A stretch of DNA of 64,000 nucleotides from Octopus vulgaris. Its lineage: Eukaryota. Position numbers and translations under genes: made by a program. The notes under the pieces are model-generated. The model made no database searches. It was given only the letters and a program-made list of their open reading frames with translations, and had not been told where the DNA came from. Positions 4,171-62,220 of this stretch are shown here, in pieces (the first letter of the stretch is position 1; the number at the start of each line of letters is the position of its first letter). The stretch covers positions 17,422,001 to 17,486,000 of the forward strand of contig OX597826.1 in NCBI GenBank assembly GCA_951406725.2. The letters are read 5' to 3'.

Positions 4171-5287
4171 CATTATTCACTTTTAGCTCAAGATTTCTTG
4201 CCAATAGAGAAAAAGCCGGTTTCTTACCTAGATCCAAGGCCCCTTCATTGGAATTTCCACAACATCATGTATGTATGTATGTGTATGTGCAGATTTGTAT
4301 CTTTTATTTTATGTATGTATTCTCATGCATATACTTGCATATTTAGACATACTCATATATACTTAAATGATAAACTTCTGGAACATTTTACAGATTTTTA
4401 CAGTTCCAGTGATGGCTTGGATCGGTAATCTTCGAATTAGCTTTCTCCTTTCTGGTTTTGAGAAGCCTAATTTCTCAAGATTGGTATTTAAGCCGTGTTA
4501 TACATATCCCTGTACCCCAATAATTACAGGTATAAACCTGATCTTGTAATCTGGATTGAGTAACAGCAGATTTCTCAATAGTTCAGCATAGGTATTCTTT
4601 TTTTCATTAATCTTCAGCTTTATATTAACATCCACTTGTCGGCTTATTTCCACAACTTAACACACTTTATCGTTTCAATCCCAAATCATTATATCAGGTC
4701 TATTGTGTTTACATTTTACTGAGGTTTTCACTGGGACATTCCACCAATATTCCTTTTTATTATGAGTGGCTATGGCTTCCACCATATTGTGGGCTCTTAT
4801 TTCTTTGTCCTCGGGTTATACTTCCAATAGATTTCCTTATATATTGTCCTAGCTACAACATCATGTCTCATCGGTAGATGATAATGTGATGACATTTTCG
4901 TACAACTGCTTATGATGTGGGTGATATCTTCAGTGTGGACTCCACAAAGTCTGCATCGGTTGCCACATTTTACTGCTTTTCCTGCATTGCTATCCCTTTT
5001 GTGCATCTGGTATTTGGTTGATATTTCCTGTTCCTGGATTGCAAATGCATACTTTTCAAAGTTGGGGGGTATTAATCCAGTTGTTGATCAATGATAGACT
5101 GCTTTGATGATCAACGTTACTATCATCTCGGAGTTTTCTACTAACATATCCATGCATAGTCTTCTGCTCATAAACGTCGATGATTTGTTGCGGTAGTCGT
5201 GCGACTTCTTTGGGTATGTATTTAAGGTTATCAGTCGAGGAATGCTGCTCAAGGAACTGCCTTCCAGGTCTTATATTATCAACCTCA
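4171..5287 (-). mobile_element. R4/Dong-like LINE 3' fragment (CCHC knuckle + restriction-like endonuclease), 5'-truncated
   Basis: CRLCGVHTEDITHIISSC..RHDVVA (ORF 4797-5006), then WWNVPVKT..KHNRPDIMIWD and FIPVIIG; stops present; flanked by (ATGT)n on both sides. Confidence 0.85.
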
Positions 5288-13886: not shown

Positions 13887-13920
13887 GGGAAGTATGCAGG
13901 CTACTTGGTAAGTAAGCTAC

Positions 13921-16900
13921 TTTATTGGGCGTTACATAGAGGGGACATACAAGGACAGACAAACATATAGGGTGAAGTAGCTTAAAAATATTTTTAAAAT
14001 TTACAATATAATGGGTAAAAATTTCAATGAAAGTTAACAAATTTAATGTTACATAGTAGGGCAAGGAAACCCGCCATCTGGATAGAACCTTTACTTCTTG
14101 ATCCGGCCATACTTACCTGGTGCCAAACATACCCAGCTTGCAAGTCATTGGCTTCCATCTTTTCACAAACATATCTCGTGACAGACACCTCTTCTCCAGC
14201 CTGATCTTACTACCGAGGTGGTAACTAAAAAAGTTAACCAACCCCTGACCGGAGACAAAGGTACCTGTCACTATACCTTTCGTATGCGTCTTCCATACTG
14301 TTTCTTTCAGTATGGCTACTTCACAGGAAAAACAAGCCTTTCTTTCCCTGCTGAGGAAAGGAGGCGGCACAATCTCGATGATAGACTCAGCTGATAGTTG
14401 TATTCTTCCATTCACTGACAACAGTTGTTCGGCAAAAGCAATCAGTCCCGATAACTCCGGGCACTCTACGAATGCGTGCAAGACGGTTTCCCTATCCCGC
14501 TCACATTGCGGGCATGTCGGCGAGACGGCACTTCCGTGCCTTGATAAGCTTGTCGCGAACAGGTAACGCCGCACGGAAACACTGCCAGGCCAGGGATTTC
14601 TGGTAATTATCCAGATACCTCGGCCCGAACGTTCTCCGGAACAGGCTGACCAACTAATTTTCATCGTAGCCCAGGGTCTCACCCAAGACGTATTCTGACA
14701 TAAATTCTACTAACCCGCTATAGAAATCCGCGGTGGAACTCCTGTTGCCGGTGTTGCCAACCCGAGAGAGAATAGCTGGAGCGCCTGACGGCACTCCAAA
14801 TACCAGTCCCCCAGTTTAGGTCTCCGCTTGATCCATGCACCGATGTCCGTTAAGGACGTTAACTGGGGAAGATAGAACCGAACGTGCGGTGACCACACCT
14901 GCTCTCCATCCAGGTAAAGCCAGAGGTGCCTCAACTTTAACGCGAGTTTTCGCATCTTAAGACAAGGCATCCCTAGCGGTTTCTGGCAACCGACAGATCG
15001 CTTTAAATGTTGCTTTCCTCCTTTCCACAAAAAGCGGAAAAGGATTCTCTCCAACTTTTTCATCCACAAATTGGGGCAAGGCACCACGATCAGACGGTAG
15101 GCGATTACTGATGCTATAAACATCTGCACCACCTCCGCCCTCCCTAGCAGGGATAGCGCCCGTCCAGACCAGGTCTGGGTGAGAGCGGTCACCCTGCTGG
15201 CCACCTCACTCCAATTTTTCTCTATCTGGAGGTCTGGACCAATCCAGACTCCGAGCAGCTTAACAGGACCTTCCGTCCAACGCCCCACGACGTATTTGGA
15301 CGACATCGGCTTGCCCCTCCAGGTGCCGAGTTGCAAACCGACCGACTTGTCCTTGTTAAATTTGCTCCTGCCACCGCCTCGTAGCCTTTAATGGCCTCTT
15401 CCACCACTGGGAGCTGGCCTTCATCCGCCACGATGATGGAGATGTCATCCGCGTACGCCGTAGCTCCTCTTCCACACCATAGATCATGAGGTGCGCCCCC
15501 TGGTGCCTCCAACTTCTGCATCAAAGGCTCAAGAGCTAACACACAGAAGCGGGACAGGGGACATCCCTGACGAACTGAACGCTCGATCCAGAACGGCTTC
15601 GAAAAGAAACCGTTCACCTTGACGACAGCCTTGATGTCGCTATACAAAGCAGCGATCCAACCTCGAAAGGTCGGGTCCAGGCCAGCCTCCCCGAGGACCG
15701 CTGGTCGACCCTATCAAATGTACCGACTGGTCTAAATGCACCAGTGCTCCCCCTGCAAATGCTTTAGACTCTCTAAAGTGTAACGTATAAGGTGGAGATT
15801 GTCGTGGATTGACCTGCCCGGGACAGCACGAGTTTGCGCCTCCCCGACAAGTTTGTCCACGACCCGCGCCAACCTTTTTGCCAACACCTTTGGCCAAAAT
15901 CTTTAACTCTGTGTTTAACAGAGTTATGGGCCTAAAGTTACCTATCTCGTCCCCCTTGCTCGGGTCCCTTGCTTTCTGATAAGCGCCACCACCACCCTCT
16001 CACAGACTTGGGAATTCTCCCATTCTGCTGCCAGTTGGCGTAGACGCTAGCTAACAGGTGCCCGAACAAGTCTGGCATACTTTTATAAAACTCATAGGGC
16101 AGACCATCGAGACCCGGCGATTGGCCCGTCACAGAACTCAGCCACTCGTGTCGAGAGACGCAGGCCACCAGACAGGAAGTCCCTAAGAGCCTCCCCATGG
16201 TCCAGCGTCCCGCACCTCCCGAACAACTCGGCGAAGTCCCTGTAAAGCGCCTCACACATTTCGTTCCTCTCCTTGACCGTGCATCCGTATTTGTCAACAA
16301 GAGACCTAATTGTGGCATCGTTTCCACGCTGGGTTTCCATCATACGGGCCCATCCGGTAACATTCATTCCCTCACGACCCAATGCTCGCACTTTAGCCCT
16401 AACTCTACACCCCTCATGTTTGGCTTTGAGGTGACAGTCTAATGACTTTCTCACCGCCAAAATGTGAGATGCAGAGTCCAACCTCAACGCCTCCACTAAG
16501 TTCTTAACTAGTTGTCCTTCTATTCTAGCCCTGTCTAGTCTTAGTTGTTTACTAAACCTAATGGACTCGAATTGAATGGCTCTTCTGAGAGTGAACCACC
16601 ACCGGTCATTAACCACGGCTCCGGTTAACGCCCTCTGCACTAACTCCTTAATCCCGCTACGGTATGCCTTACAAATCAAAATAGACTTGTTCAGCTTCCA
16701 GTAGCCGGGTCCTATCTAAAGTGTGCTACCTATGTCCAGTCTACACTTGACCATTCTATTGTCAGTGTAGGACACCTGGACAAGCTGTGAACAACTAAAA
16801 CTAGACTTATCTCTACTTCTTATCACTATCCTATCTAGATAAGATTTGAACCTTCCGTCGCCACTCATCCAGGTCCGCTCTGGGACGTTCGGATGGTCAA

Positions 16901-16930
16901 GTCTGTAACGATCTGCCAGCTGAAAACGCT
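13921..16930 (-). mobile_element. Tx1-clade LINE ORF2 (APE C-terminus, RT, C-terminal CCHC), frameshifted, 5' part lost
   Basis: SYLDRI..TDNRMV, SPGLDGLPYEFY, VRQGCPLS, AYADD, CPQC..ETVLHAFVEC; 3' UTR ends in AATAAA at 13921. Confidence 0.92.
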
Positions 16931-17285
16931 TGTATAACATATTATGCTTTACATATATAAAAATACCAGTAATTATTAAAATATATAACGTAGAACATAG
17001 AAAGTAGAATAGTTTCTTAGAGATAAATAATAACTTAGTGCAATAACTTGTACGGTCACTTTTGGTCTTTTGTCCCTTATTTGAATTTGGTCCGAATAAC
17101 TTCCAACGTACAATTTTAACCCTATATTACACATATGGTTTAGTAAATATACAAATGATTCTCCTAATTAGACAGATACATGTAATATTATATACTGTCT
17201 TTTTAATAAACTTGTAATAACTTATCTTTCATATGCAGTCTATTAAAACAATATCCCCTTAGTAATATTACTTTAACCTAAAATA

Positions 17286-22580: not shown

Positions 22581-22716
22581 GTAGGCGTGACTGTGTGCTA
22601 AGAAGTTTGCTTCCTAACCACATGGTTTCGGGTTCTGTCCCACTACGTGGCACTTTGAACAATTCTGACCAAAATCTTGCGCGTAGATTTGATGTACAGA
22701 AACTGAAAGAAGACCG

Positions 22717-23240: not shown

Positions 23241-24106
23241 CGAGATGGTATGAAAATGTTCCCGGACTAGTTTTGTAGCACACCAACAGATGCCAGCACT
23301 CAGCTGCTTGCATGGTGAGGGCTAGCAACGAACTACATGAAGCTATGTCCCAAGTAACATCGCTGGGTTTACTTTGCAAGTTATTTACTTTGCAAGTTGT
23401 TTACTTTGCATCATGTGTCTGTGTAGTCTGTGATTTTTGTTAAGGACAGGACATTGAAACAAAGAGCCAACAGGAAATTTTACGTTAAACTTGGAAAAAG
23501 TGAGCATACTTCGGCAATGCTTCGAGTGGTACAGGCGCTTCAAAAGGCACGACAGAGCCGCAAGCTCAGTTAAGAGCATGCACATCGCTTCTTTTCGACA
23601 TCCACGGTATTGTGCATCGAGATTTCGTCCTTCAAGACCAGACTGTCAATCGAGAATTCTACTGCGACGTTTTGAAGTATTTGAGGGAGGAGATTCGACG
23701 AAAGCAACCGGATCTGTGGAGCAACCGGATCTCACGACGACAATGCACCCTGAAACCGAGCTCTCCTCAGTTGTAAGTTTCTCCCCCAAAACAACATGGT
23801 ATCGCTTCCGCACCCTCTCTATTCAGCAGATTTAGCACCTGCGGACTTCCATCTCTTCCCCAAGAGGAAAATGCAGCTCAAAGGTTACCGTTTTAATACC
23901 GTAGTCGAGATCCAGGACGAATCGCGGAAGGTGATCGAATCGCTTATAGAAAAAAGACTTCCGGTCCGGATTCCAAAAGTGGCAGAAACGCTGGGACCGG
24001 TGTACTGATGCGCAAGGGGAGTATTTCAAAGGAGATGATGTTAAAACTTAGGTAAATATGTAATTTTTTATTAAACATAAATAGTCCGTGAGCCTTTTTA
24101 TACTAC
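23241..24106 (+). mobile_element. Mariner element, internally deleted
   Basis: TIR-like CGAGATGGTATGAAAATGTTCCCGGACTAG after TA; CFEWYRRFK, HDDNAP, PHPLYSADLAPADFHLFP. Confidence 0.88.
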
Positions 24107-26480: not shown

Positions 26481-28146
26481 TCTTGACTGACGTGGGGCAG
26501 AACAACAACTGTCTCAAAAAGAAATTTTAAAAAAAGACAATATTACTTGTTCTATCTTGAAAAAGCATTGTCGATTATATATTATTGGAATTATTTTATC
26601 GATTTCAGAAGTAAAACAACAGTTTCGAATGCGTCAAGATTTGAACCCAACATATATGCTGTAAAACATCTATTTTGATACCCAACTCTTTAGACCACCA
26701 CCAATTATTAACGACCTATAAGGCCAATGTGGTGTATAGTATTACTTCGAGAAGGAGTAGTATCATTGTAACCCAAACATGCTGCACACGTTGGTTAAAA
26801 TAATTTTACTACATAGAAGCACTGATCTCTTACAACTCCCAGTTATAGCTTCAACAAATTAGTATTGAACATTGGTAGCCATTCCACGGTTCTTCGATTC
26901 GGCTGGTGAGCTAAATTAAGCAGGATATATCAGAAGCCCCGAATGGATTATTGCATAGGGGATGGCAACAGAAGTATCTGTGTCAAATTAAAGATTAATG
27001 GTTCTGAATGCATGACAGTAAGATATGCGACACATCAATGACACTCTCTAGATGTAAATGGACAGTGAAAAAAGAACATACAATAAATAATGGGGGAATT
27101 AAATGTAAAGTTGCTCGCGTAAATAACGTTAATATAACAGGTCGAAATGGATTAGGTGGAAGAAATGAAAGAAATAATCAACCATTCGTTTTCTTTTCCA
27201 AGAAATATTTTAGCAATGACTAACACACTGCTCCAACAACCACCAAGAAAATTATTCACGTTGAAAAGTCCAAATGACATGATAGCAAATCGGGCAGACT
27301 ACATTCTGATAAACCAACGGCTTAGAAAGTGTGTGAAACTTGCAAAAAGATTCCTTATGGCAGATATATATTGAAACCATACTTCAATGGTAATTATATT
27401 ACAAATCAAATTTAAGAAAATGAAATAGCTAAAGGAAGAGAACAATTGAACTTAAATTTGCTAAAGTAGACAGAATACAAACAAAGCTAAAATATATCTG
27501 TAAAAATACGAAACAATTATGAATATTTTCACAATAAAAAAGAAATACAACAATAGAATAAACAAACCAATGGAAGGAGAAAATATAACATTTAAAGCTA
27601 ACGTGTAAACATTGTTAAAGAGAAAACTGGCCGAAAGGGGAAAAGAAAAAGAAGAAAAAGTGGATGGCTGGACAGATTCTATCGAAAATTAAAGAAAGAA
27701 ATACAATAATAAAGATCAAGACAGATAGAGCAGTTTAAGTGAAACAAAAAGTAAGGGAGACTAGAAAAGTATAAAAGCAAAGACCAGTTGAAAAAACAAC
27801 TTCAAAAGCAGCAGAAATTTTTTAATGAAATCACAAAATAGCAAATGTATGAGTAAACAAGGTGGTAGCATTAAGGATCGAATGGGGGAATCCTGGGATC
27901 GTGAATAGATTGCATCGAGATGGTGTCTTTATTCTTTTTCTCTTTTATCTTTTACTTGTTTCAACCATTAGACTACGGCCATGCTGGACACCGCCTTGAA
28001 GAACTTTTAGTCGAACGAATCAACCCCAGTACTGGCACATATCCTATCGATCTGTTTGGTCGAACGGCAATCACCGGTTGTCAAGCTGTGGGCGGAGGGG
28101 CACATACAGACACAAAGATGCACACACACACACACACACACACAAA

Positions 28147-28202
<56 letters not shown>

Positions 28203-28306
28203 CTAGATTCGCTCACAAAGCTTTAGTCGGCCCAAGATGTAGTAGAAGACACTTTCCCAAAGTCCCACTGAACCCGGAACCATGTGGTTAGGAAGCTAAC
28301 TTCTTA

Positions 28307-28719
28307 TTTCTTTACGGCCCACAAGGGGCTACACACAGAGGGGACAAACAAGGACAGACAAACGGATTAAGTCGATTACATCGACCCCAGTGCTCAACTG
28401 GTACTTAATTTATCGACCCCGAAAGGATGAAAGGCAAAGTCGACCTCGGCGGAATTTGAACTCAGAACGTAACGGCAGACGAAATACCTATTTCTTTACT
28501 ACCCACAAGGTGCTAAACACAGAGGGGACAAACAAGGACAGACAAAAGGATTAAGTCGATTACATCGACCCCAGTGCGCAACTGGTACTTAAGTTATCGA
28601 CCCCGAAAGGATGAAAGGCAAAGTTGACCTCGGCGAAATTTGAACTCAGAACGTAACAGCAGATGAAATACGGCTACGCATTTCGCCCGGCGTGCTAACG
28701 ATTCTGCCAGCTCCCCACC
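28307..28719 (-). mobile_element. SINE-B (Tx1-type tail), one full and one headless tandem copy
   Basis: Two near-identical units 28307-28487 and 28488-28719. Confidence 0.9.
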
Positions 28720-28730
28720 TTTTTTTTTTT

Positions 28731-28812
28731 CTCAGACAAAAAAATGGCTTCTAAAGACAAGTAATGTCTTCATATATCGATGAGACGGGGAAAGAATTTT
28801 GTAATCATCACT
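28731..28812 (-). ncRNA. SNORD12: C/D box snoRNA retrocopy, SNORD12-like
   Basis: Minus strand A-GTGATGA(C box)-TTACAAAA-TTCTTTCCCCG-T-CTCA(D')-TCGA..ATGAAGA(C')..GCCATTTTTTGT-CTGA(D)-GA then oligo(A). The guide is complementary to conserved 28S CGGGGAAAGAA, and both conserved blocks resemble vertebrate SNORD12 as I recall it. Confidence 0.8.
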
Positions 28813-31086
28813 GCTAACTTCTTACCACACAACCAGACCGCCTACGCCTCTACACAGCCACGCCTGAACTTATATTGGTAAAAAAAAGACTATTCCCAGT
28901 TTCAAAGCTGCTAACAACAAAAGCTTAAAATAAGGAGAAAAGGCAATAAACTCAGTGAAAGTTGAAAAGGCTATGAGAGTCGATGAAATATTAGTATTAA
29001 AAGCATCCTAGATCTAACGACAGGCTTATATAAAGTAATATATGAAAATACAAAGATCCAACCGAAATGAAACAACGTCTTTGTTCCAGAACTAATGAAT
29101 CTTAAAGATCAAACTGTGTGATGTGTCATGTAACTAAATTACCGATAAAAAAACCCATCCAACAACCAATTACATCAAGAATGAAGGAAGAAATAAATCA
29201 ACTAAAAAGTGAAGTCTGCTCTTTGAATGGAAACTCGTGAAGGAACGTTTAACCCAAAAGATATCTGTGAAAGAGTCCTAGACAAGTCAAGATTATAACA
29301 TATATTTTATAGACTCCGCCAAGACTTTTGACATGTAATGATGGTCCAGTGTCATCAGAACTCGAGATATGCGATGAAAAATTCCAAATAATAATGTACA
29401 GTAAGCAATAAGCGTAGTGAGAGCCGAACGATGGGGCGAAAATCTCAAAATTTGAAATTAATAAAAACATCAGGCTAGGCCGTGTACTATCTTCTGGCAT
29501 ATTTTAGCAATACACTGAAATCTTCAAAGAAATAGAAGATACAACGGGAGTATTTGCATGAAGTGTAGTCATTAACAACCTTAGATATGCAGATATTGCT
29601 ATATTAACTTCCAAAGATTACTTACCTAATCTTGTAACCACAAAGAAATGACAAAGGAGTGCCTGATGGAATTGAAGTAAATGTAAAGAAAATAATATCC
29701 ATATTGATACCCAAGAAACAAAAGCCATCTAAAATCAATGTTATAATTGATTGAAAACTAATTGAACTGACACCAAAAATGATATACCTGAGTTATATGT
29801 AGTCAGAAAACGGAAAATGTGAGGCAGACATCAAAAGAAAGATCCAGATGGTTAGGAAATGATTTGAAAATATGTCAAACATACTAACATCAAAAAGCAT
29901 TAAAATCGAAACCAGAAAAAAATATTATTGAGGTGTTATTTATAAACCAGGTACTAGAATAGATGGAACTGAAGTATGGACATTACCAAAATAGATTAAG
30001 AAGCCTTTCAGCTCTGGGCTTAAAGAAAACATTCGAGAACATCATTGACAGATCATAAAACCAATGGTGAAATACTAAGAATGGAAAAAAAAGACTAAGA
30101 AAATTTCATTAGATGCCATCAAAAAGAGAAAGCACATATTTCGGACACTTAATTAGAAAAAAATAGTTTACAGCGACTGTTCATAGAAGACAAAATATAA
30201 ATGGAAAAAGAGGGAAAGTAACATCAAACAGCAAATGTATAAGGACAGTAGAAAACCGAGATGGTGGTGGTGGTCGTGGTGAGGAGGAGGAGGATTTACA
30301 CTACCTAGTTCGGTAATGCGCTATCAGAAATCAGAAATCCTGCCAGATTTCTCCACCTGGTGTATTATTGGGTAGAATCCTTTAGAAATAGTGATTCTGT
30401 GTCTAATAAAAGGAAGCAACTAATCAGGTATGAAGCAAGCGCTGATCATTTCCACTTTCTGGTCAGAAGGCTTACCCTTTAAGCCATCTCTGAACATCCT
30501 GACTGGATTTTGATTTCTTTCCAACGAGAATATTAATTTATATTAAATCCTTGCTAAATAATTAAATCCTTGAGGAAATACAACTTGGGCAGCGTTTCGA
30601 ACCCAACATCTAAACTTGTTAACTACGGTTTCATATTCAATTTTGTCTTTGTTTAGCCTCTCTACGTCTGCCCCGACTGAGCAGGCTCATAATCAAAAGC
30701 ATTCCAGGTGTAGCCATCCTGTCTTTTTATATAACAAGATCTACATTCTCCAGTGTAGCCTTCTTTAACACAGTAACGTCTCATGTGAGGAAAGTGAGGT
30801 AATATTTATAATTAGCCAACCGGATGCGCTGAGTATTTCTTATAACACAAAATGCTATCTAATAATTCCATTGACGTCGAGACTAGAATGCAAATTAAAC
30901 CCAGTACTGTGTCCAGAAATTGGCCTCGTTGGAATCTGAACTCAGAACGTAAAAAAGAGGTAATTATATGCTGCAAGACCATCCCTCTATCTATACACTT
31001 TAAAATCTGATGCTAAATTTGCATCATATAATTATAGCAGACAGACAGACGGACAAATACATACATACATACATGGACAGATAGAC

Positions 31087-31134
<48 letters not shown>

Positions 31135-31225
31135 TAACATAAATACGCATATATATGTATATTAATACACATACATACATACATACATACATGTGTACAT
31201 GCATACCTACATACGCACATACATA

Positions 31226-31458
31226 CCTATTTCTTTATTACCCACAAGGGGCTAAACATAGAGGGGACAAACAAGGACAGACATATGTATTAAGTCGATT
31301 ACATCGACCCCAGTGCGTTACTGGTACTTAATTTATCGATCTCGAAAGAATGAAAGGCAAAGTCGGCCTCGGCGGAATTTGAACTCAGAACGTAACGGCA
31401 GACGAAATACGGCTACGCATTTCGCCCGGCGTGCTAGCGATTCTGCCAGTTCGCCACC
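31226..31458 (-). mobile_element. SINE-B (Tx1-type tail) in a (TACA)n tract
   Basis: Near-identical to 28488-28719. Confidence 0.9.
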
Positions 31459-31510
31459 TACCCACCTACATACATACATACATACATACATACATACATA
31501 CATACATACA

Positions 31511-31990: not shown

Positions 31991-32156
31991 AAATAAAGGT
32001 ACAATATCGACTTAAATATGGGATTTGGGGAGCAGGTATATAACTTTGATGAATATTAGGAAAGGGCTGGAGGAAAGAGATTGAATAGAGAGGAGAAAAA
32101 GAGGAAGCTTAGTGCTATGAGATGATACATAGAATTGATTTATTAGAAATGCACGA

Positions 32157-32329
32157 GGCGCAGGAGTGGCTGTGTGGTAAGTAGCTTGCTTACCAACCAC
32201 ATGGTTCCGGGTTCAGTCCCATTGCGTGACATCTTGGGCAAGTGTCTTCTACTATAGCCCCGGGCCGCCTAAAGCCTTGTGAGTGGATTTGGTAGACGGA
32301 AACTGAAAGAAGCCCGTCGTATATATATG

Positions 32330-34459: not shown

Positions 34460-35560
34460 CTTAGTAACGTGGATCCATCGTGTGCGTTGATGTCACACAC
34501 CAGTAAGTGAGTGATGAAATCGCCTGTAGTAGTAAAGTGAGTGGCGACATACGAAAGCGGTCGGCAAGGCGTTGACCTGTATCTCCAATGTAAAGTATAC
34601 CACATAGTTTGAAAATGATGCAATATATAAGATCAGATGTGCACCAGAAATTATGAGTAAGCGAGTAGAGGACCTTCTGCGATTCGCTCTGGATCTCGAC
34701 AACGATGTTAAAACGGTGACCTTTGAGCAGAATTTTCATCTTGGGGAAGAGATGGAAGTCCGCAGGTGCGGAAGCGATACCATTTTGTTTCGGGGGAGAA
34801 ACTCAGAAGTGAGGAGAGCTCGGTGTCAGGGTGCATTGTCATCGTGAGAATCCAATTCTTCGCGCTCCACAGATCCAGTTGCTTTCGCCGAATATCCTCC
34901 CTCAAACGCTTCAAAACATCGCAGTAGAACTTTCGATTGACAGTCTGGCCCTGGGGGACGAATTCTCGGTGTACAATACCACATTTCCGGGAGTGACGCT
35001 CGTGGCACGTTTTTCAGACCGCTCGTCATCTTCCAGGGAAGTTCTTCCGCTTTTGAAGCGCCTGTGCCACTCGAAACATTGCGTGCGACCCATTGCCTCG
35101 TCGCCGTAAGCTTGCCGAAGCATGCTCAATGTCTCTGTAGCAGACTTCCCAAGTTTAACCCTGTCTCGTTTTTCCTACTTCCTGTCCATGATAAAATCAA
35201 GGACCACAACATACACGTGATCACAAAAACACAAATTACACAACTTGCGAAGTAAACACAGTGATGTCACTCAGCACACTGCCTCATGAATGTCACTGCT
35301 AGCTCTCACTGCGCACGCAACCGTTTGCTGCCATCTGTTGGTGCACTACAGAACTAGTCCCGGTACTTTTTTGTACCACTATAAGGACTTAGGCCCAATG
35401 AGGACTGTAGTGTTGTTAATGTGGAAGCAGGTGTTGCATTGTCGGTGAGTGCATTTAAAAATACCTGGTTGAGTTGGATTGGGTTCTGTGAAGCTACTTA
35501 CTAGGAGATTTCCTATCTTTTTTGAAGGCAAGTAGTAGTAATGCTGGAAAACTAGGTACG
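34460..35560 (-). mobile_element. Penelope-like GIY-YIG endonuclease remnant split by a mariner
   Basis: IGNLLVSS..GIFKCTHRQCNTCFHINNT..GPKS (35379-35520) continues as HNFWCTSDLIYCI..CGILYIGDTGQRLADRF (34550-34655). Confidence 0.85.
34655..35380 (-). mobile_element. Mariner element (same family as 23241-24106), truncated
   Basis: LRQAYGDEAMGRTQCFEWHRRFKSGRTSLEDDERS, HDDNAP; TIR at 35353-35380. Confidence 0.9.
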
Positions 35561-39344: not shown

Positions 39345-40439
39345 TCCATATACAGCTATATATATATATATATAGGGACCTACATAGATCATCAATAAGT
39401 TTCTATTTACATGCTCACATCTTTAGACTGGGGAAATATTAATTAAGTTCTATTTATAATTTTTAATTACAATTATGAAAGTTATTAATTTACTTTAAAA
39501 TAGTTAAAGATATCGGTTATGAGGTATCGATATGACAGCCTATTAATTATAAACATAATAAAAATCATTTATATCTAATAAATGCATATTTATTTTTATG
39601 TACGCAAGAAATATTTTTTCATCTCTCAGGTTGAGTAAAGGAAACGCAGCCATTAAAATAAATAATTTCTCATTCAAACAAAGAAGGCACTTCTTATTGC
39701 TTATATTGTAACTGGGTGCAGTCATCAAGATATCCCATTCGAGATTAAAATTCATTTTTTATCTTTAAGCTCCCAAATGAATTTACTTAGACTCGTTAAA
39801 TTCTGTCTTTTCCTTTACCGAAATGTATATAAATGTGTTGAAAGACGCTTCTTCATTTCATTTTTAGTTGATCCAATATAAACATATTTATTATTAATTT
39901 CTGTGGTAACTTTACATTGATATACTACATTTTCCACTTTACACAAATTTTTAACCATACAGCTATCTTTATTTTTACAATCACAGGTTCTATAAGAATA
40001 ATCCTTTATATTAGTTGAGGAGGAGGCTTTACATGTAACTGGTTTCCGATCGATCTTAATAATATTATGTTTATTAATGGAATACTTAATAGTATTGCTA
40101 CTAATATATTCTATATTGAACCTAGCAGTAGGGGAGTTATTACTGACACGTTTTCTATTTGCATAAAATAAATCTAATTTTTTATTATTTATAGAAGCTA
40201 TAATAGTAAAGTTATGAGTTAAACTATATCCTAAATGAATGTGTGTATTGTGGAAAAAAATCAGTTATCTAACTGAATATTTATAGATTTAAGTTTAGGA
40301 ATTTACGTAATTTCAGTCAGATTATTTATTTATCTATGATTAAGCTCGCTCTCAAAAAGCGTTTTTTTTTTTTTAAAGCCTTAAAAGTTATGAATATTTT
40401 CAATTGATATTTTCCGTGAAATAATGAAGGAGATATGTC

Positions 40440-50403: not shown

Positions 50404-50795
50404 GGCGCAGTTGTGGCTATGTGGTAAGTAGCTTGCTTACCAACCACATAGTGCCGAGTTCAGTCCCACTGCGTGGTACCTTGGGCAAGTGTCTTATACT
50501 ATAGCCTCAGGCAGACCAAAGCCTTGTGAGTGGATTTGGTAGACGGAAACTGGAAGAAGCCTGTCGTATATGTATATGTGTGTATATATTTGTGTGTCTG
50601 TGTTTGTCCTGCAAACATCGCTTGACAACCGATGCTGGTGTGTTTACGTCCCCGTAACTTGGCGGTTCGGCAAAAGAGAGTGATGGAATAGTACTAGGCT
50701 TACAAAGAATAAGCTCTGGATCGATTAGCTCGATTAAAGGCGGTGCTCCAGCATGGCCGCAGTCAAATGACTTAAACAAGTAAAAGAGTAAGAGT
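50404..50795 (+). mobile_element. SINE-A, full length
   Basis: Similarity to 32157-32580. Confidence 0.92.
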
Positions 50796-55914: not shown

Positions 55915-57191
55915 ATCAGGCTGAGTAAAAAGTATGCAACGTTTTGATACATGAAAGTCATCTCAATATATTTCAGCAATGCGAAAATTTTACTCATTAA
56001 AGTAAGTACCAATACAATCAACACATTCTTGCCAACGAGTTACAAGTTTATTCATTCCGGTAACATAAAAATCTGGAGTTCTGGAGCTGATGAACTCTTT
56101 CAACGCACTTTCAGCTTCGATTTGATTTTTGAACTACTTCCCTCGAAAGAAACCGAGAAGGTGCTTCAGAAAGTGGTAGTCGGTCGGAGAAAGGTCTGGG
56201 GAATAAGCTGGGTGAAAATGAACTTCGTAGCCAAGTTCCCTCAACTTCTGGAGCGTCATTAGAGAAAAGTGTGGTCGAGCATTGTCATGAAGAATGATTG
56301 GCCCTCTTCTGTTGACCAGTCTGGGACGGTGGAGTAGCAGATTTTCGTTCATTTTGGCAATTTTGTGCCAATATGTTTCTGCAGTAATGGATTTTTCGGG
56401 TGTTAAGAAGTTATAGTGGATGAGTCCAGCAGTACACTACCAAACAGTCACCATAGCCTTCTTTTTGAAAAGATTGGGTTTAGGAAAGGTTTTCAGTTTT
56501 TCATTTGGTCCAACCACTGTGAAGAACGTTTTTTATTATTGTTCAGAATCCACTTTTCATCGCAAGTTATAATACGGTCAAGAAATGGATCGGTCTGATT
56601 ACGGAGAAGAAGCGACGAGCAAATTTCATATCTGTGCATTTTCTAATTTTCATTCAAATCGTGTGATACCCATTTATCGAGCTTTTTTGATTTTCCGATT
56701 GTATGCAGATGGTTGCAGGCAGTTTCCTGTCTAACTTGAAGTTCTTTTGCTAGTTCTCGAGTGGTTTTACGTGGATCTTTCTCAATGACGGTCATTAATT
56801 GACTGTCATCGATAACAGATGGGCGTTCATTACGCTCACGATCTTTAAAGCTCAGGTCTCGACTGCAAAATCGTTTTAACCATTTTCGAGTTGACCTCTC
56901 ACTAGTCATTTCCACACCAAATGTTTCGTTGATATCGCGAACAGCTTCGGCTGCTTTACGTCCCTTTTGAAGTTGAATAGCAAAATTGCTCGAATATCGC
57001 GCTTTGCCAGTTCCCTTTCAGATGATTGTAACAGCAGTGAAAAAAAAAATCAATGTTTATTTATTGATGCATTTGAACAATTCTATGTCTGTAGAATTGC
57101 AAAAAGATGCTTTAAATAATAAAAACACTGCAAAACTGCGGTACAAATTTTTCATGGTTCAAAACACTGCTTACTTTTTACTCAATCTGAT
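55915..57191 (-). mobile_element. Near full-length mariner (DD34D), pseudogenised
   Basis: TIRs ATCAGGCTGAGTAAAAAGTA / TACTTTTTACTCAATCTGAT; KWVSHDL, ITCDEKW, HDNARPH, YSPDLSPTDY. Confidence 0.93.
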
Positions 57192-58829: not shown

Positions 58830-61800
58830 GACCCTATCAAATGCCTTACACTGGTCTAAATGCACCTGTACCCCCACCCTGCTCCAGAAAGTTTCCTAAC
58901 CGTCTCTAAGGAGTAGCGTATAAGGTGGAGATTATCGTGGATTTACCTGTCCGGGATAGTGCAAGTTTGCGCTTCCCCGACAACTCAGACCACGACCCGC
59001 GCCAACATTTTTGCCGGCACCTTGACCAAAATCTTTAACTCTGTTTTTTGCAGAGTTATGGGCCTAAAGTTCCCTATCTCATTCCCTTTGCTCGGGTCCT
59101 TTCTGATCAACGTCACCACCCCCGGCTCGCAGACTTGGGAATTCTTCCATTCTGTTGCCAGTTGGCGTAAACGCTGGCCAGTAGGTGCCCGGATAAGTCT
59201 GGCATACTTTTATAGAATTCATAGGGCAGACCATCGAGACCCGGCAACTTCTCCCTGGGGCAGTCGCCCAGCACCTCGATTACCTCCTCGGCTGTGATTG
59301 GTCCTTCACAGCACTCGGCCTCTCGTGCCGAGAGACGCGGGCCACCAGACAGGAAGTCCCTAAGGGACTCACCATGAGACAGCGTCCCGCCCCTCCCGAA
59401 CAACTCGGCAAAGTGCCTGTAAAGCGTCTCACACATCTCGTCCCGTCTTTCGACTGAACGTCCGTTTTCATCGACAAATGACCTAATCGTGGCAACGTTT
59501 CAACGCTGGGTTTCTACCGTGTGGGGCCATCCGGTAACATTAATTCCTTCACGACCCAATGCTCGCACTTTAGCCCGAACTCTACACCCCTCATGTTTGG
59601 CTTTGAGGGGACGGTCCAATGCCGTTCTCGCTACCAAAATGTGAAATGCAGAGCCCAACCTCAACGCCTTTTCTATGTCCTTGACTAGTTGCCCTTCTAT
59701 TCTGGCCTTATCTAGTCTTAGCTGTTGACTAAACCTAATGGACTCAAATCGCTCTCTTGAGGGCGAACCACCGGCGGTTATTAACCACAGCGCCAGTTAA
59801 CGCCCTCTGTACTAACTCCTTAATCCGGCTACGGTATGCTTCGCAAATCAAAATAGCTTCTTAAGCTTCCAATAGCCGGGTCCTCTCTTAACTGTACCAT
59901 CCATGTGCAGTCTACACTTAACCATTCTATGGTCAGTGTAGGCTACTTGGACAATCCGTGGACAGCTAAAACTAGTCTTATCTCTAGTTCTTATCACTAT
60001 CCTATCTAAGTAAGACTTGAGCTTTCCGTCGCCACTAATCTAGGTCCACTCTAGGACGTCTGGATAGTCAAGCCTGTAACGATCTGCCAGCTGAAAGCGC
60101 TTAAGCAGATCCACGAGACGTGAGTTCACTTTCCTACTGGTCGAGCCAATGCTATCTATGCGTGCGTCAACAATAGCTTTAAAGTCACGTAACACCACTA
60201 ATGTCTTCGGCGTCACGAGAAAGTTCTCCAGGCGCCGATAAAAATCAGTTTGGCATCCTCTAGCACAAGGTGCATAGAGTCCGATCAACCTGAAGGCTTT
60301 TCTGCTGTATGTCACATTAAGGACGACCAGCCCACCTTCTAGGTCCACATAAACTGTGCTTGTCTGCAGAGCAGAGCCTTTACGGATCAGTACCACTACA
60401 TCCACTCGTCCTCCGGTCTGGCCAGGAAACATGATTTTCTCATAGCTATTCAGGAGGGGCGAGAAAGTATGTAGACTGTCCAGCTTGGTCTCTGTAGCAA
60501 CCATCACATATATATCTTGTGATCTGAGGTCGTCGGGGAAACAAGTTTACTTCCACTTCGAACTCAGACCAGGCACATTCAGACAACCAAGGTTAAGTGC
60601 AGTCACAACTTGAAAAGTAGAGGTTCTACATACCCTTCATGGGCGACGATGGGGCTGACCTCACCACACGTGAGGCAGCCTTTTCCTTCTCCTCCTTCTC
60701 CAAATACTTCGGAAGGTTCCCAATTCTTCCGATGGCCGTCGGGTATCTTTCCTTCAAATGCTTGAATAGGGTTTCCCCTATCCAGACACACCTCCTTGGC
60801 GGTGTGGTGGTTCACAATTATTTCGTCCGTGTATTTGTCTCTGGTGTCAAATTCTACCAACACCTTAATGTCACAATCATCTTTTTCTTCTTTTTTTCCG
60901 GGGACAAGGGAGCGGTTTTATTTTTTTTGTAATTGGCTGTGTTCTCGTTTGTTTTTGTGGGGGAAATGGATGGTGACGGTGTATGAGTTCGTTTACGAAC
61001 TACTGCGTACTCCCCCTCGACCACCTCCATGGTGTCGTCCGAGAGAGCTGTACATTTTCCATCAGGTGCCAACAAGGGGTGGGTATTTTTACTTGTATCG
61101 AGGTTTGTGTGTGCAGGGATTGGGATTTTGTGGTGTTATGTTTAGGGGCCGGTACCGTAGTTGGGGGAGTGGGAAGTTTTACTTGTGTGGGGTCTGGTAT
61201 ATGCGTAGGTTTGGAGACTATTTTGGGATTTTCTGAAGGGCCTGGTGTCTACGCCATTTTTCCATCTTTTCCTTTTCTTTTTGTTTCCTTGTTTCGCAGT
61301 CCACGCGAATGTGACCCTTTTTCCCACATTCATAGCAGGTGGGTTTTCTTCCTTCCACCTCCATTCTAAGGGCCACATTCTTGCCCACGAGCACCCTTTC
61401 AGGAAGCTCCTGAAGGTTTTCCTGCGTACCCTGTACAATTGCTGTAATGCTCCGCCCGAGCCAATTCTGGGGGGCAGAGCATGTAATTTGCAAGAATTTT
61501 ATACGGTCCGTCCTGTTAAACAACAGGGCGGCCATCACCTCCTTCGTGTCAACTTCCGGTGGTACTTCTGTCACCTTCGCACCGAAATTCCGCCTTCCCA
61601 TGTATGTTGGTAGACGTACCACTTCCTTTGTCTTCAGGGGACACACGGAATGCCCGCGGGCCATCTCTTCACTAGAAAAACGGACCTCAACTGTACTGTA
61701 TGCCCGTCCCCTTGCAATATAGGCTACGTCTTTCCATATCGAGGACAGGCATTTTTCAATTTTCTCTTTCTCGAAGTGATTAAACTTTCTGTTTTGTGGG

Positions 61801-62220
61801 CAGAAGGATTTAAGCACTACGGTCCGTTTTTCTGTGTCGACCACACTGGAGGAGGGTGATATTTTAACGTCACCGTCCTCCTCTTTCATTCTTTTAAATA
61901 AACCTTCCTGCTGATCGACAGGAATGTCGGTATTTTCGACTGCCACCGCGGCTACCACCGAGAACTTTTTCACATTTTCTTGCTTACTCTCTACGAGAAT
62001 ACACCTCTCGTGTATAATTTCAACCAGCATTCTTCGGTTGAAATTAATTTCACAAGTAAATTACACAAATTACACAAATTAAATAGTTTCCCGCAAAAAT
62101 CGGAAATAAAAAAATTTCCTTGGGGCTGGCCAGATTGGAGACATTTCGAGTATAACCAGTCGAAATTGCAAAGATATTCTGGAACTCGACTGAGGATTGA
62201 AAACTCCAAATGCTCAGTCC
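58830..62220 (-). mobile_element. Tx1-clade LINE 5' part: UTR, ORF1 (CCHC gag knuckle), ORF2 APE and start of RT; 3' lost
   Basis: ORF1 VEGRKPTCYECGKKGHIRVDC; ORF2 CLNVPGL, ATETKL, LIGLYAP, LRDFKA, SYLDRI, PGLDGLPYEFY; aligns with 15700-16930. Confidence 0.93.

Follow-up and report, generated by a model that had tools for sequence, protein, structure and literature searches.

On the minus strand of the window (the whole stretch of 64,000 nucleotides that was analysed), a copy of a C/D small nucleolar RNA (snoRNA), a run of A and two SINE units lie together inside one short direct repeat. The locus raises the question of how these parts were brought together, in a single insertion or in successive ones, and of whether the snoRNA copy is a functional gene or a relic. 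Read along the minus strand, the composite (28295-28824) runs from a 12-bp target-site duplication (TSD) through an 82-nt snoRNA copy, an A11 run, a full SINE and a headless SINE to the second TSD copy, within a host SINE:

28813..28824, minus strand: 5′ copy of the TSD, 12 bp, exact direct repeat, belonging to an older host SINE (“SINE-A”)
28731..28812, minus strand: snoRNA retrocopy of the SNORD12/snR107/snR190 family with near-mature ends, 82 nt, 40.2 bits with a model of its homologues
28720..28730, minus strand: A11 run, the oligo(A) tail of the snoRNA, from sequence and alignment
28491..28720, minus strand: full SINE-B unit with head, core and LINE-like tail, 91.6% identical to the copy at 31459-31223
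28307..28490, minus strand: headless second SINE-B unit, joined to unit 1 by a junction also seen at other loci
28295..28306, minus strand: second TSD copy, at the 3′ side, identical over 12 nt to 28813-28824
27930..28294, minus strand: remainder of the interrupted host SINE-A, recognised from uninterrupted copies in the window

This layout is the one that an earlier, sequence-only reading had described, and one exact 12-nt repeat does enclose the whole composite, as that reading also held. An exact copy 490-550 nt downstream was found for 1 of the 21,770 non-simple 12-mers of the window. In the uninterrupted SINE-A copies of the window (32155-32283, 224-339, 50414-50530 and 22581-22638), the TSD repeat corresponds to a single stretch; therefore, the whole block interrupts the older host SINE. 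The last one or two A of the A11 run probably belong to the SINE head. The snoRNA ends had been placed correctly at the 5′ side, 1 nt before box C, whereas the supposed “2 nt after box D” consist of one non-A letter and an A.

Regarding the identity of the 82-nt segment, the following elements of a C/D snoRNA were recognised:

28805..28811, minus strand: box C, from sequence and invariant alignment columns
28785..28796, minus strand: antisense element 1 (ASE1), the LSU rRNA guide, with the fifth base before box D′ at 28789
28781..28784, minus strand: box D′, altered at 28782 (CUCA here, CUUA in the parent-type contigs described below)
28767..28773, minus strand: box C′, followed by a short hairpin, from alignment and fold
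28744..28751, minus strand: second conserved motif, GCC-purine-purine, ASE2-like, one A shorter than in the parent-type contigs
28732..28735, minus strand: box D, from sequence and alignment

At the gathering score, Rfam gave no match anywhere in the 64-kb window, and ARAGORN found no genes in it. At the E-value level, snR107 was matched with 26.5 bits (cut-off 44, E 0.01) and SNORD12 with 20.8 bits (cut-off 43, E 0.18), so the expectation that an Rfam scan would return SNORD12 held for the family and failed for the gathering cut-offs. A pattern scan of metagenome contigs yielded 47 matches in 46 loci (L001-L046), from which two were dropped for want of a box D in reach and the others were collapsed to 31 distinct homologues. 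The SNORD12 cut-off was reached by only 2 of the 20 homologue loci scanned, most others lying below it; therefore, the Rfam models of the family are narrow. As a side observation, the SNORD12, snR107 and snoZ103 models match the same stretches of the metagenome loci and may represent one family split three ways. Some of the SNORD12/snR107-type loci (L001, L016, L019 and L042) lie beside a snoR38-like match, and two snoRNA copies share one contig at L023 and at L026/L027.

A sequence-only model built on the 31 homologues (R1) matches the window once, at 28732-28812, with 40.2 bits and an E-value of roughly 2e-11, the agreement of the 5′ 30 nt being built into the search pattern. Features of the 3′ part that are independent of this pattern (box C′, the GCC-purine motif and box D) are found together at 32 of 127,840 random starts. 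MAFFT with seven homologues misplaced the 3′ half of the window copy, and the model alignment was used instead. The ASE1 guide forms 11 Watson-Crick pairs and one G-U pair with the LSU rRNA of another eukaryote (L055), which bears out the earlier claim that it is complementary to conserved LSU rRNA. L055 was verified as rRNA (Rfam LSU_rRNA_eukarya, 210 bits); it is a contig of a viral collection that ends in eukaryotic LSU rRNA, probably through host contamination. Of the 20 viral-contig matches to the rRNA motif used as query, 19 turned out to be other than rRNA. SNORD12, snR107 and snR190 are described as orthologues in which ASE1 is the guide for an LSU rRNA G (G3878 in human, G2483 in fission yeast) and a second element is named ASE2 (10.1101/2024.10.03.615557). 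Chance mimicry of a snoRNA was rejected on the 3′ features, the R1 match and the parent-type contigs. By its letters, the 82-nt segment belongs to the SNORD12/snR107/snR190 family, and the SNORD12-type identity first proposed agrees with the E-value-level Rfam matches, the 40.2-bit model match and the guide pairing.

For the history of the site, contigs of 4 of the 24 listed public runs (organisms A, B, D and E) were compared with 28450-29250. A second sample of organism A matched 28693-28814 unbroken and without difference; therefore, the letters of the window are not assembly errors. In organism B, one contig (28920-28702) spans the TSD, the snoRNA, the A-run and the SINE head, which is a filled site. 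The orthologous flank contig of organism E follows the window from 29250 down to 28813, precisely the edge of the TSD, with 21 differences in 438 letters, and its last 28 letters past 28813 fail to fit the window; this break is apparently an empty orthologous site, of the kind that the sequence-only reading had called for. The flank contig of organism D stops at 28845, short of the site. No intermediate state was seen among the three informative organisms (A and B filled, E apparently empty). The flanks differ by 4.8% between A and E and by 2.4% between A and B, with 2.4-2.7% for orthologous flanks.

A candidate for the postulated parental snoRNA was also found, as a parent-type contig in all four runs with the same set of differences from the window copy (28782, 28763, 28762, 28751 and an extra letter behind 28744). 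Its depth amounts to 1.2-4.0 times that of the flank; this version is conserved in all four organisms and probably present at several loci. Summed contig depth, which is not a copy number, is about 10^2 over the snoRNA and about 10^7 over the SINE, implying that there is no large amplified snoRNA family.

The SINE-B pair has a 184-nt period, and its units differ at 11 of 175 positions. Six letters are private to unit 1, all of them differing from the family majority, and four to unit 2; these private letters speak against the SINE having been tandemly duplicated in place, recently and after its insertion. The same tail-to-headless junction is bridged by contigs in organisms B and D, with 13 and 15 differences in about 112 letters. 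These two contigs may be one locus in two organisms, and they represent loci paralogous to the composite because their divergence is far above the 2.4-2.7% of orthologous flanks. The tail of the SINE-B copy at 31459 likewise continues into the same first letters as the dimer junction. The two-unit form thus probably pre-dated the insertion, to judge from these sequences. As the same junction occurs at other loci, the SINE-to-SINE template jump of the sequence-only reading is not needed. Viral contigs gave no match to the dimer-junction pattern, and this set is uninformative for the question.

In each of the four runs, the summed contig depth of the SINE-B unit is very high, and owing to this flood of SINE contigs the joints and loose ends considered are a minor share of those in the runs. 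All three SINE-B tails of the window are directly followed by TA(A/G)G. A T precedes the three other SINE heads in the window and appears in the consensus of the listed loose ends in all four runs, while the composite is without it. On the minus strand at 31223-31459, a monomeric SINE-B lies in a TATG microsatellite and shows a 5-bp duplication overlapping its head. The summed depth of the SINE tail (28504-28611) reaches 0.76-0.86 of that of the shared core in organisms A, B and D, but 0.19 in E, hinting that this subfamily expanded after the split from E, with the proviso that depth is not copy number.

The tail of SINE-B has a stretch in common with an L1/Tx1-like LINE of the window, in support of the earlier reading, which had invoked a Tx1 reverse transcriptase:

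13934..13964, minus strand: part of the 3′ UTR of an L1/Tx1-like LINE remnant, similar to the SINE-B tail over 31 nt (93.5%, E 8e-8 in the window)

This LINE is a candidate partner element of SINE-B. Two decayed copies, 81% alike, lie on the minus strand at 58830-62060, which keeps ORF1 with a zinc knuckle, and at 13920-16931, which keeps the 3′ end. The layout of the family is L1/Tx1-like, as judged from domains alone: zf-CCHC in ORF1, zf-RVT and a weak RVT_1, with APE, RT and zf-RVT (PF03372, PF00078 and PF13966) in its relatives. A PDB search with the LINE did not separate R2 from L1. On the minus strand at 13905-13922, the LINE 3′ end is continued by 18 nt of host-SINE sequence, exactly from the site where the composite is inserted (17 of 18 agree with the SINE-A copy at 32178), the rest of SINE-A being absent; a target preference of the LINE for this host SINE site is possible. 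Active L1-Tx1 families as well as small U and U-L1 repeat classes are described in an octopus (PMC13282606), and earlier octopus SINE work is cited in PMC4758252. Elsewhere in the window, Mariner-type transposase remnants (23246-23946, 34658-35378 and 56137-57017), a second LINE remnant with zf-RVT (4800-5087) and a weak, Penelope-like GIY-YIG match (39818-40264) were noted.

Regarding the origin of the composite, the likeliest course, put at about an even chance, is a single template switch, probably from a pre-formed SINE dimer RNA onto an oligoadenylated snoRNA, within one insertion. The LINE protein would bind the LINE-like tail of the SINE and nick the host SINE at a TAAG site, a sequence that agrees with the 3′ end of the incoming SINE. 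The LINE reverse transcriptase would then copy a head-core-tail/core-tail transcript, the junction of which is seen at other loci. At the SINE 5′ end, the T-ending cDNA would pair with the oligo(A) of a 3′-trimmed snoRNA, and copying would continue to near the mature snoRNA 5′ end; RNA ligation before copying would be indistinguishable from such a switch. The outcome is the single TSD, the filled site in A and B and the break at the TSD edge in E, followed by the changes that set box D′ and the second antisense element apart from the parent-type version, which are documented in part.

Several features of the joints favour the single switch. For the SINE taken alone, the best flanking repeat measures 3 nt and overlaps its head. 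No A lies between the SINE tail and the TSD, and the tail stops at the same point as in unit 1 and the copy at 31459. The T that precedes the other SINE heads is missing, and the three informative organisms, none of which shows an intermediate state, are in keeping with a joint arrival. Where insertions followed one another in mammals, each mostly came with a TSD of its own or left a triplication (PMC1687206). In LINE clades that depend on a tail, U6 is reported to be copied exclusively in chimeric form, U6-SINE of platypus among them (PMC4476161); SINE-B shares its tail with the LINE, and tail dependence of this LINE is assumed.

The main competitor, which is possible and somewhat less probable, is a sequence of two events in which the snoRNA retroposed alone, as a Type-1 snoRNA retroposon (snoRT) with an 11-12 bp TSD, and the SINE dimer landed later at the boundary of A-tail and 3′ TSD with a second duplication of at most 3 nt. 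The A-tract at the joint is characteristic of a Type-1 snoRT that inserted independently, and the 12-bp TSD is within the snoRT range. A second TSD could be short or absent because the only other complete SINE-B in the window shows 5 bp, and a 3-nt inner repeat does exist. The boundary of A-tail and TSD would offer the TA(A/G)G that follows all three SINE-B tails, and the SINE is extremely abundant. Precedent also leans this way: a human H/ACA survey interpreted six cases as an Alu inserted later before the 3′ TSD and one as a template switch (PMC1802619), and a U6atac/Alu joint with an extra A and without a TSD was interpreted as two events (PMC4476161). However, no A is left 3′ of the SINE, there is neither a second TSD nor a triplication, and the T found before the three other SINE heads of the window is missing. 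Both events would also have had to happen after A and E separated (4.8% flank difference) and before A and B did (2.4%). The earlier claim of template jumping within one insertion is supported in its single TSD round the whole, its SINE-to-SINE step is not needed, and a later SINE insertion fits almost as well.

Two successive switches of template during a single insertion, the first between SINEs and the second to the snoRNA, as originally proposed, are improbable. One TSD round three parts, two units differing at 11 of 175 positions with six and four private letters, and published tripartite chimeras from a fungus and mammals (PMC2104539) speak for them; the tail-to-headless junction on paralogous contigs in B and D, the tail of the copy at 31459 and the listed joints, which resume at 28477-28484, past the junction, speak against them. 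Least probable is read-through (a Type-2 snoRT), in which a parent intron already holding snoRNA, A-run and SINE dimer gave a 5′-processed, 3′-extended precursor that was copied through the SINE tail with no switch: it accounts for the single TSD and the mature-like 5′ end, and mammalian snoRTs with downstream intron are common (PMC1687206, PMC1802619), but the parent-type contigs, which are simplified, stop about 3-4 letters past the snoRNA (28728-28727), depth arithmetic finds no matching depth into A-run and head, both points being suggestive, and the contig of A itself is unbroken over 28693-28814.

A broader form of the preferred single switch, namely that an L1/Tx1-type LINE favouring one older-SINE site repeatedly captures oligoadenylated snoRNAs by tail-dependent switching from SINE RNA, is highly doubtful. 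If it were true, the 4-10 snoRNA-like contigs per run would include further snoRNA-SINE chimeras, and the locus would mark the beginnings of an invertebrate SINE family headed by a snoRNA, comparable to SINEU.

As for the state of the copy, its box D′ variant (the change at 28782) occurs in none of the 31 homologues, and the two purines after GCC, present in all 31, are lacking from the window copy, in which the motif is shortened by a missing letter. The parent-type contigs carry the family letters at both places. The centroid structure has no terminal stem joining the ends and holds only an internal hairpin (z = −0.31), in agreement with the initial remark on the stem. Scanning 140 of the 193 candidate frames outside LINEs for a host gene returned transposon-type domains only, plus one weak HTH match that falls inside a SINE copy; short or non-coding exons would escape such a frame scan. 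At 28782, 28762 and 28751, the window copy (organism A) differs from the parent-type version. In organism B, all depth at 28782 and 28751 carries the parental letter, and the depths at 28762 sum to parent plus orthologue, suggesting that the three changes are private to A. Three changes in 82 nt are no slower than neutral, in a weak test (P 0.08-0.23 of at least three). A new functional snoRNA is unlikely because box D′ and the second element are altered, the stem is absent and no host exon was found in the frames scanned; the earlier suggestion of an expressed new snoRNA is accordingly disfavoured, and by these lesions the copy is probably a decaying pseudogene.

As a clean and dated case of a retroposed snoRNA in a non-vertebrate, the locus combines filled orthologous sites with one that seems empty, and it preserves in DNA the trace of a C/D snoRNA intermediate that had been oligoadenylated. 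Should the composite have formed in one step, it would show that an enzyme of the L1/Tx1-like type is able to switch from a SINE to a snoRNA with an A-tail. The locus is also a pointer to a SNORD12 family of this lineage, so far unannotated, which escapes Rfam. Since a single copy is involved, probably a dead one, and composites of this kind are known, the wider impact is modest. No mollusc snoRNA retrocopy or snoRNA-SINE chimera was found in the literature searched, mostly open-access main texts without supplements. Amplified retroposon families with a small-RNA head are exemplified by the platypus snoRTE.

Compared with known snoRNAs, the window copy resembles SNORD12/SNORD106 (RF00581), snR107 (RF04328) and snR190 in its boxes C, D′, C′ and D and in the same LSU guide, as well as in the conserved D′-C′ stretch, the hairpin after C′ and the GCC-purine motif before box D. 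Unlike them, it scores below both gathering scores, has an altered D′ and one A fewer in the second motif, is stemless and lies inside a SINE instead of a known host intron.

Composites of this type are, by their layout, already known in mammals and a fungus. Type-1 snoRTs are defined by near-mature ends, an A-tail of 5-30 nt and a TSD of 8-19 bp (PMC1687206). The composite has what appear to be such ends, such a tail and a TSD of that size, together with a parent-type version elsewhere (four of four runs) and an apparently empty site (E breaking at 28813). It is like the mammalian Type-1 snoRTs (PMC1687206) and the H/ACA retrogenes with Alu (PMC1802619, Fig. 1I, 1J) in its mature-like 5′ end, the 0-9 bases after the snoRNA, the A-tail, the 8-19 bp TSD, its position within another mobile element and the SINE that lies ahead of the 3′ TSD, after the snoRNA. 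In contrast to these mammalian cases, it is a C/D snoRNA in an invertebrate, it has a dimer SINE with a LINE-like tail and no poly(A), and its partner looks L1/Tx1-like instead of being mammalian L1.

Template-switch chimeras have one TSD enclosing all their parts, and so has the composite. Like the U6/U3-L1, U6-Alu and platypus U6-L2/Mon-1 chimeras (PMC4476161; 10.1101/2025.02.02.635956), it has the small RNA at the 5′ side, in the same sense and within one TSD; unlike them, it has oligo(A) at the joint. The Magnaporthe WEIRD/Mg-SINE/MGL chimera likewise holds three parts in one direct repeat (PMC2104539), whereas the second and third parts of the window composite probably pre-existed as one unit. 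Although crocodilian SINEU is an amplified family and the snoRNA composite is without amplification, the two are alike in a small-RNA head, a Tx1-type partner (Tx1-Mar, which mobilises SINEU, and the L1/Tx1-like candidate of the window) and a preference, for the composite a possible one, for another repeat (PMC4494074).
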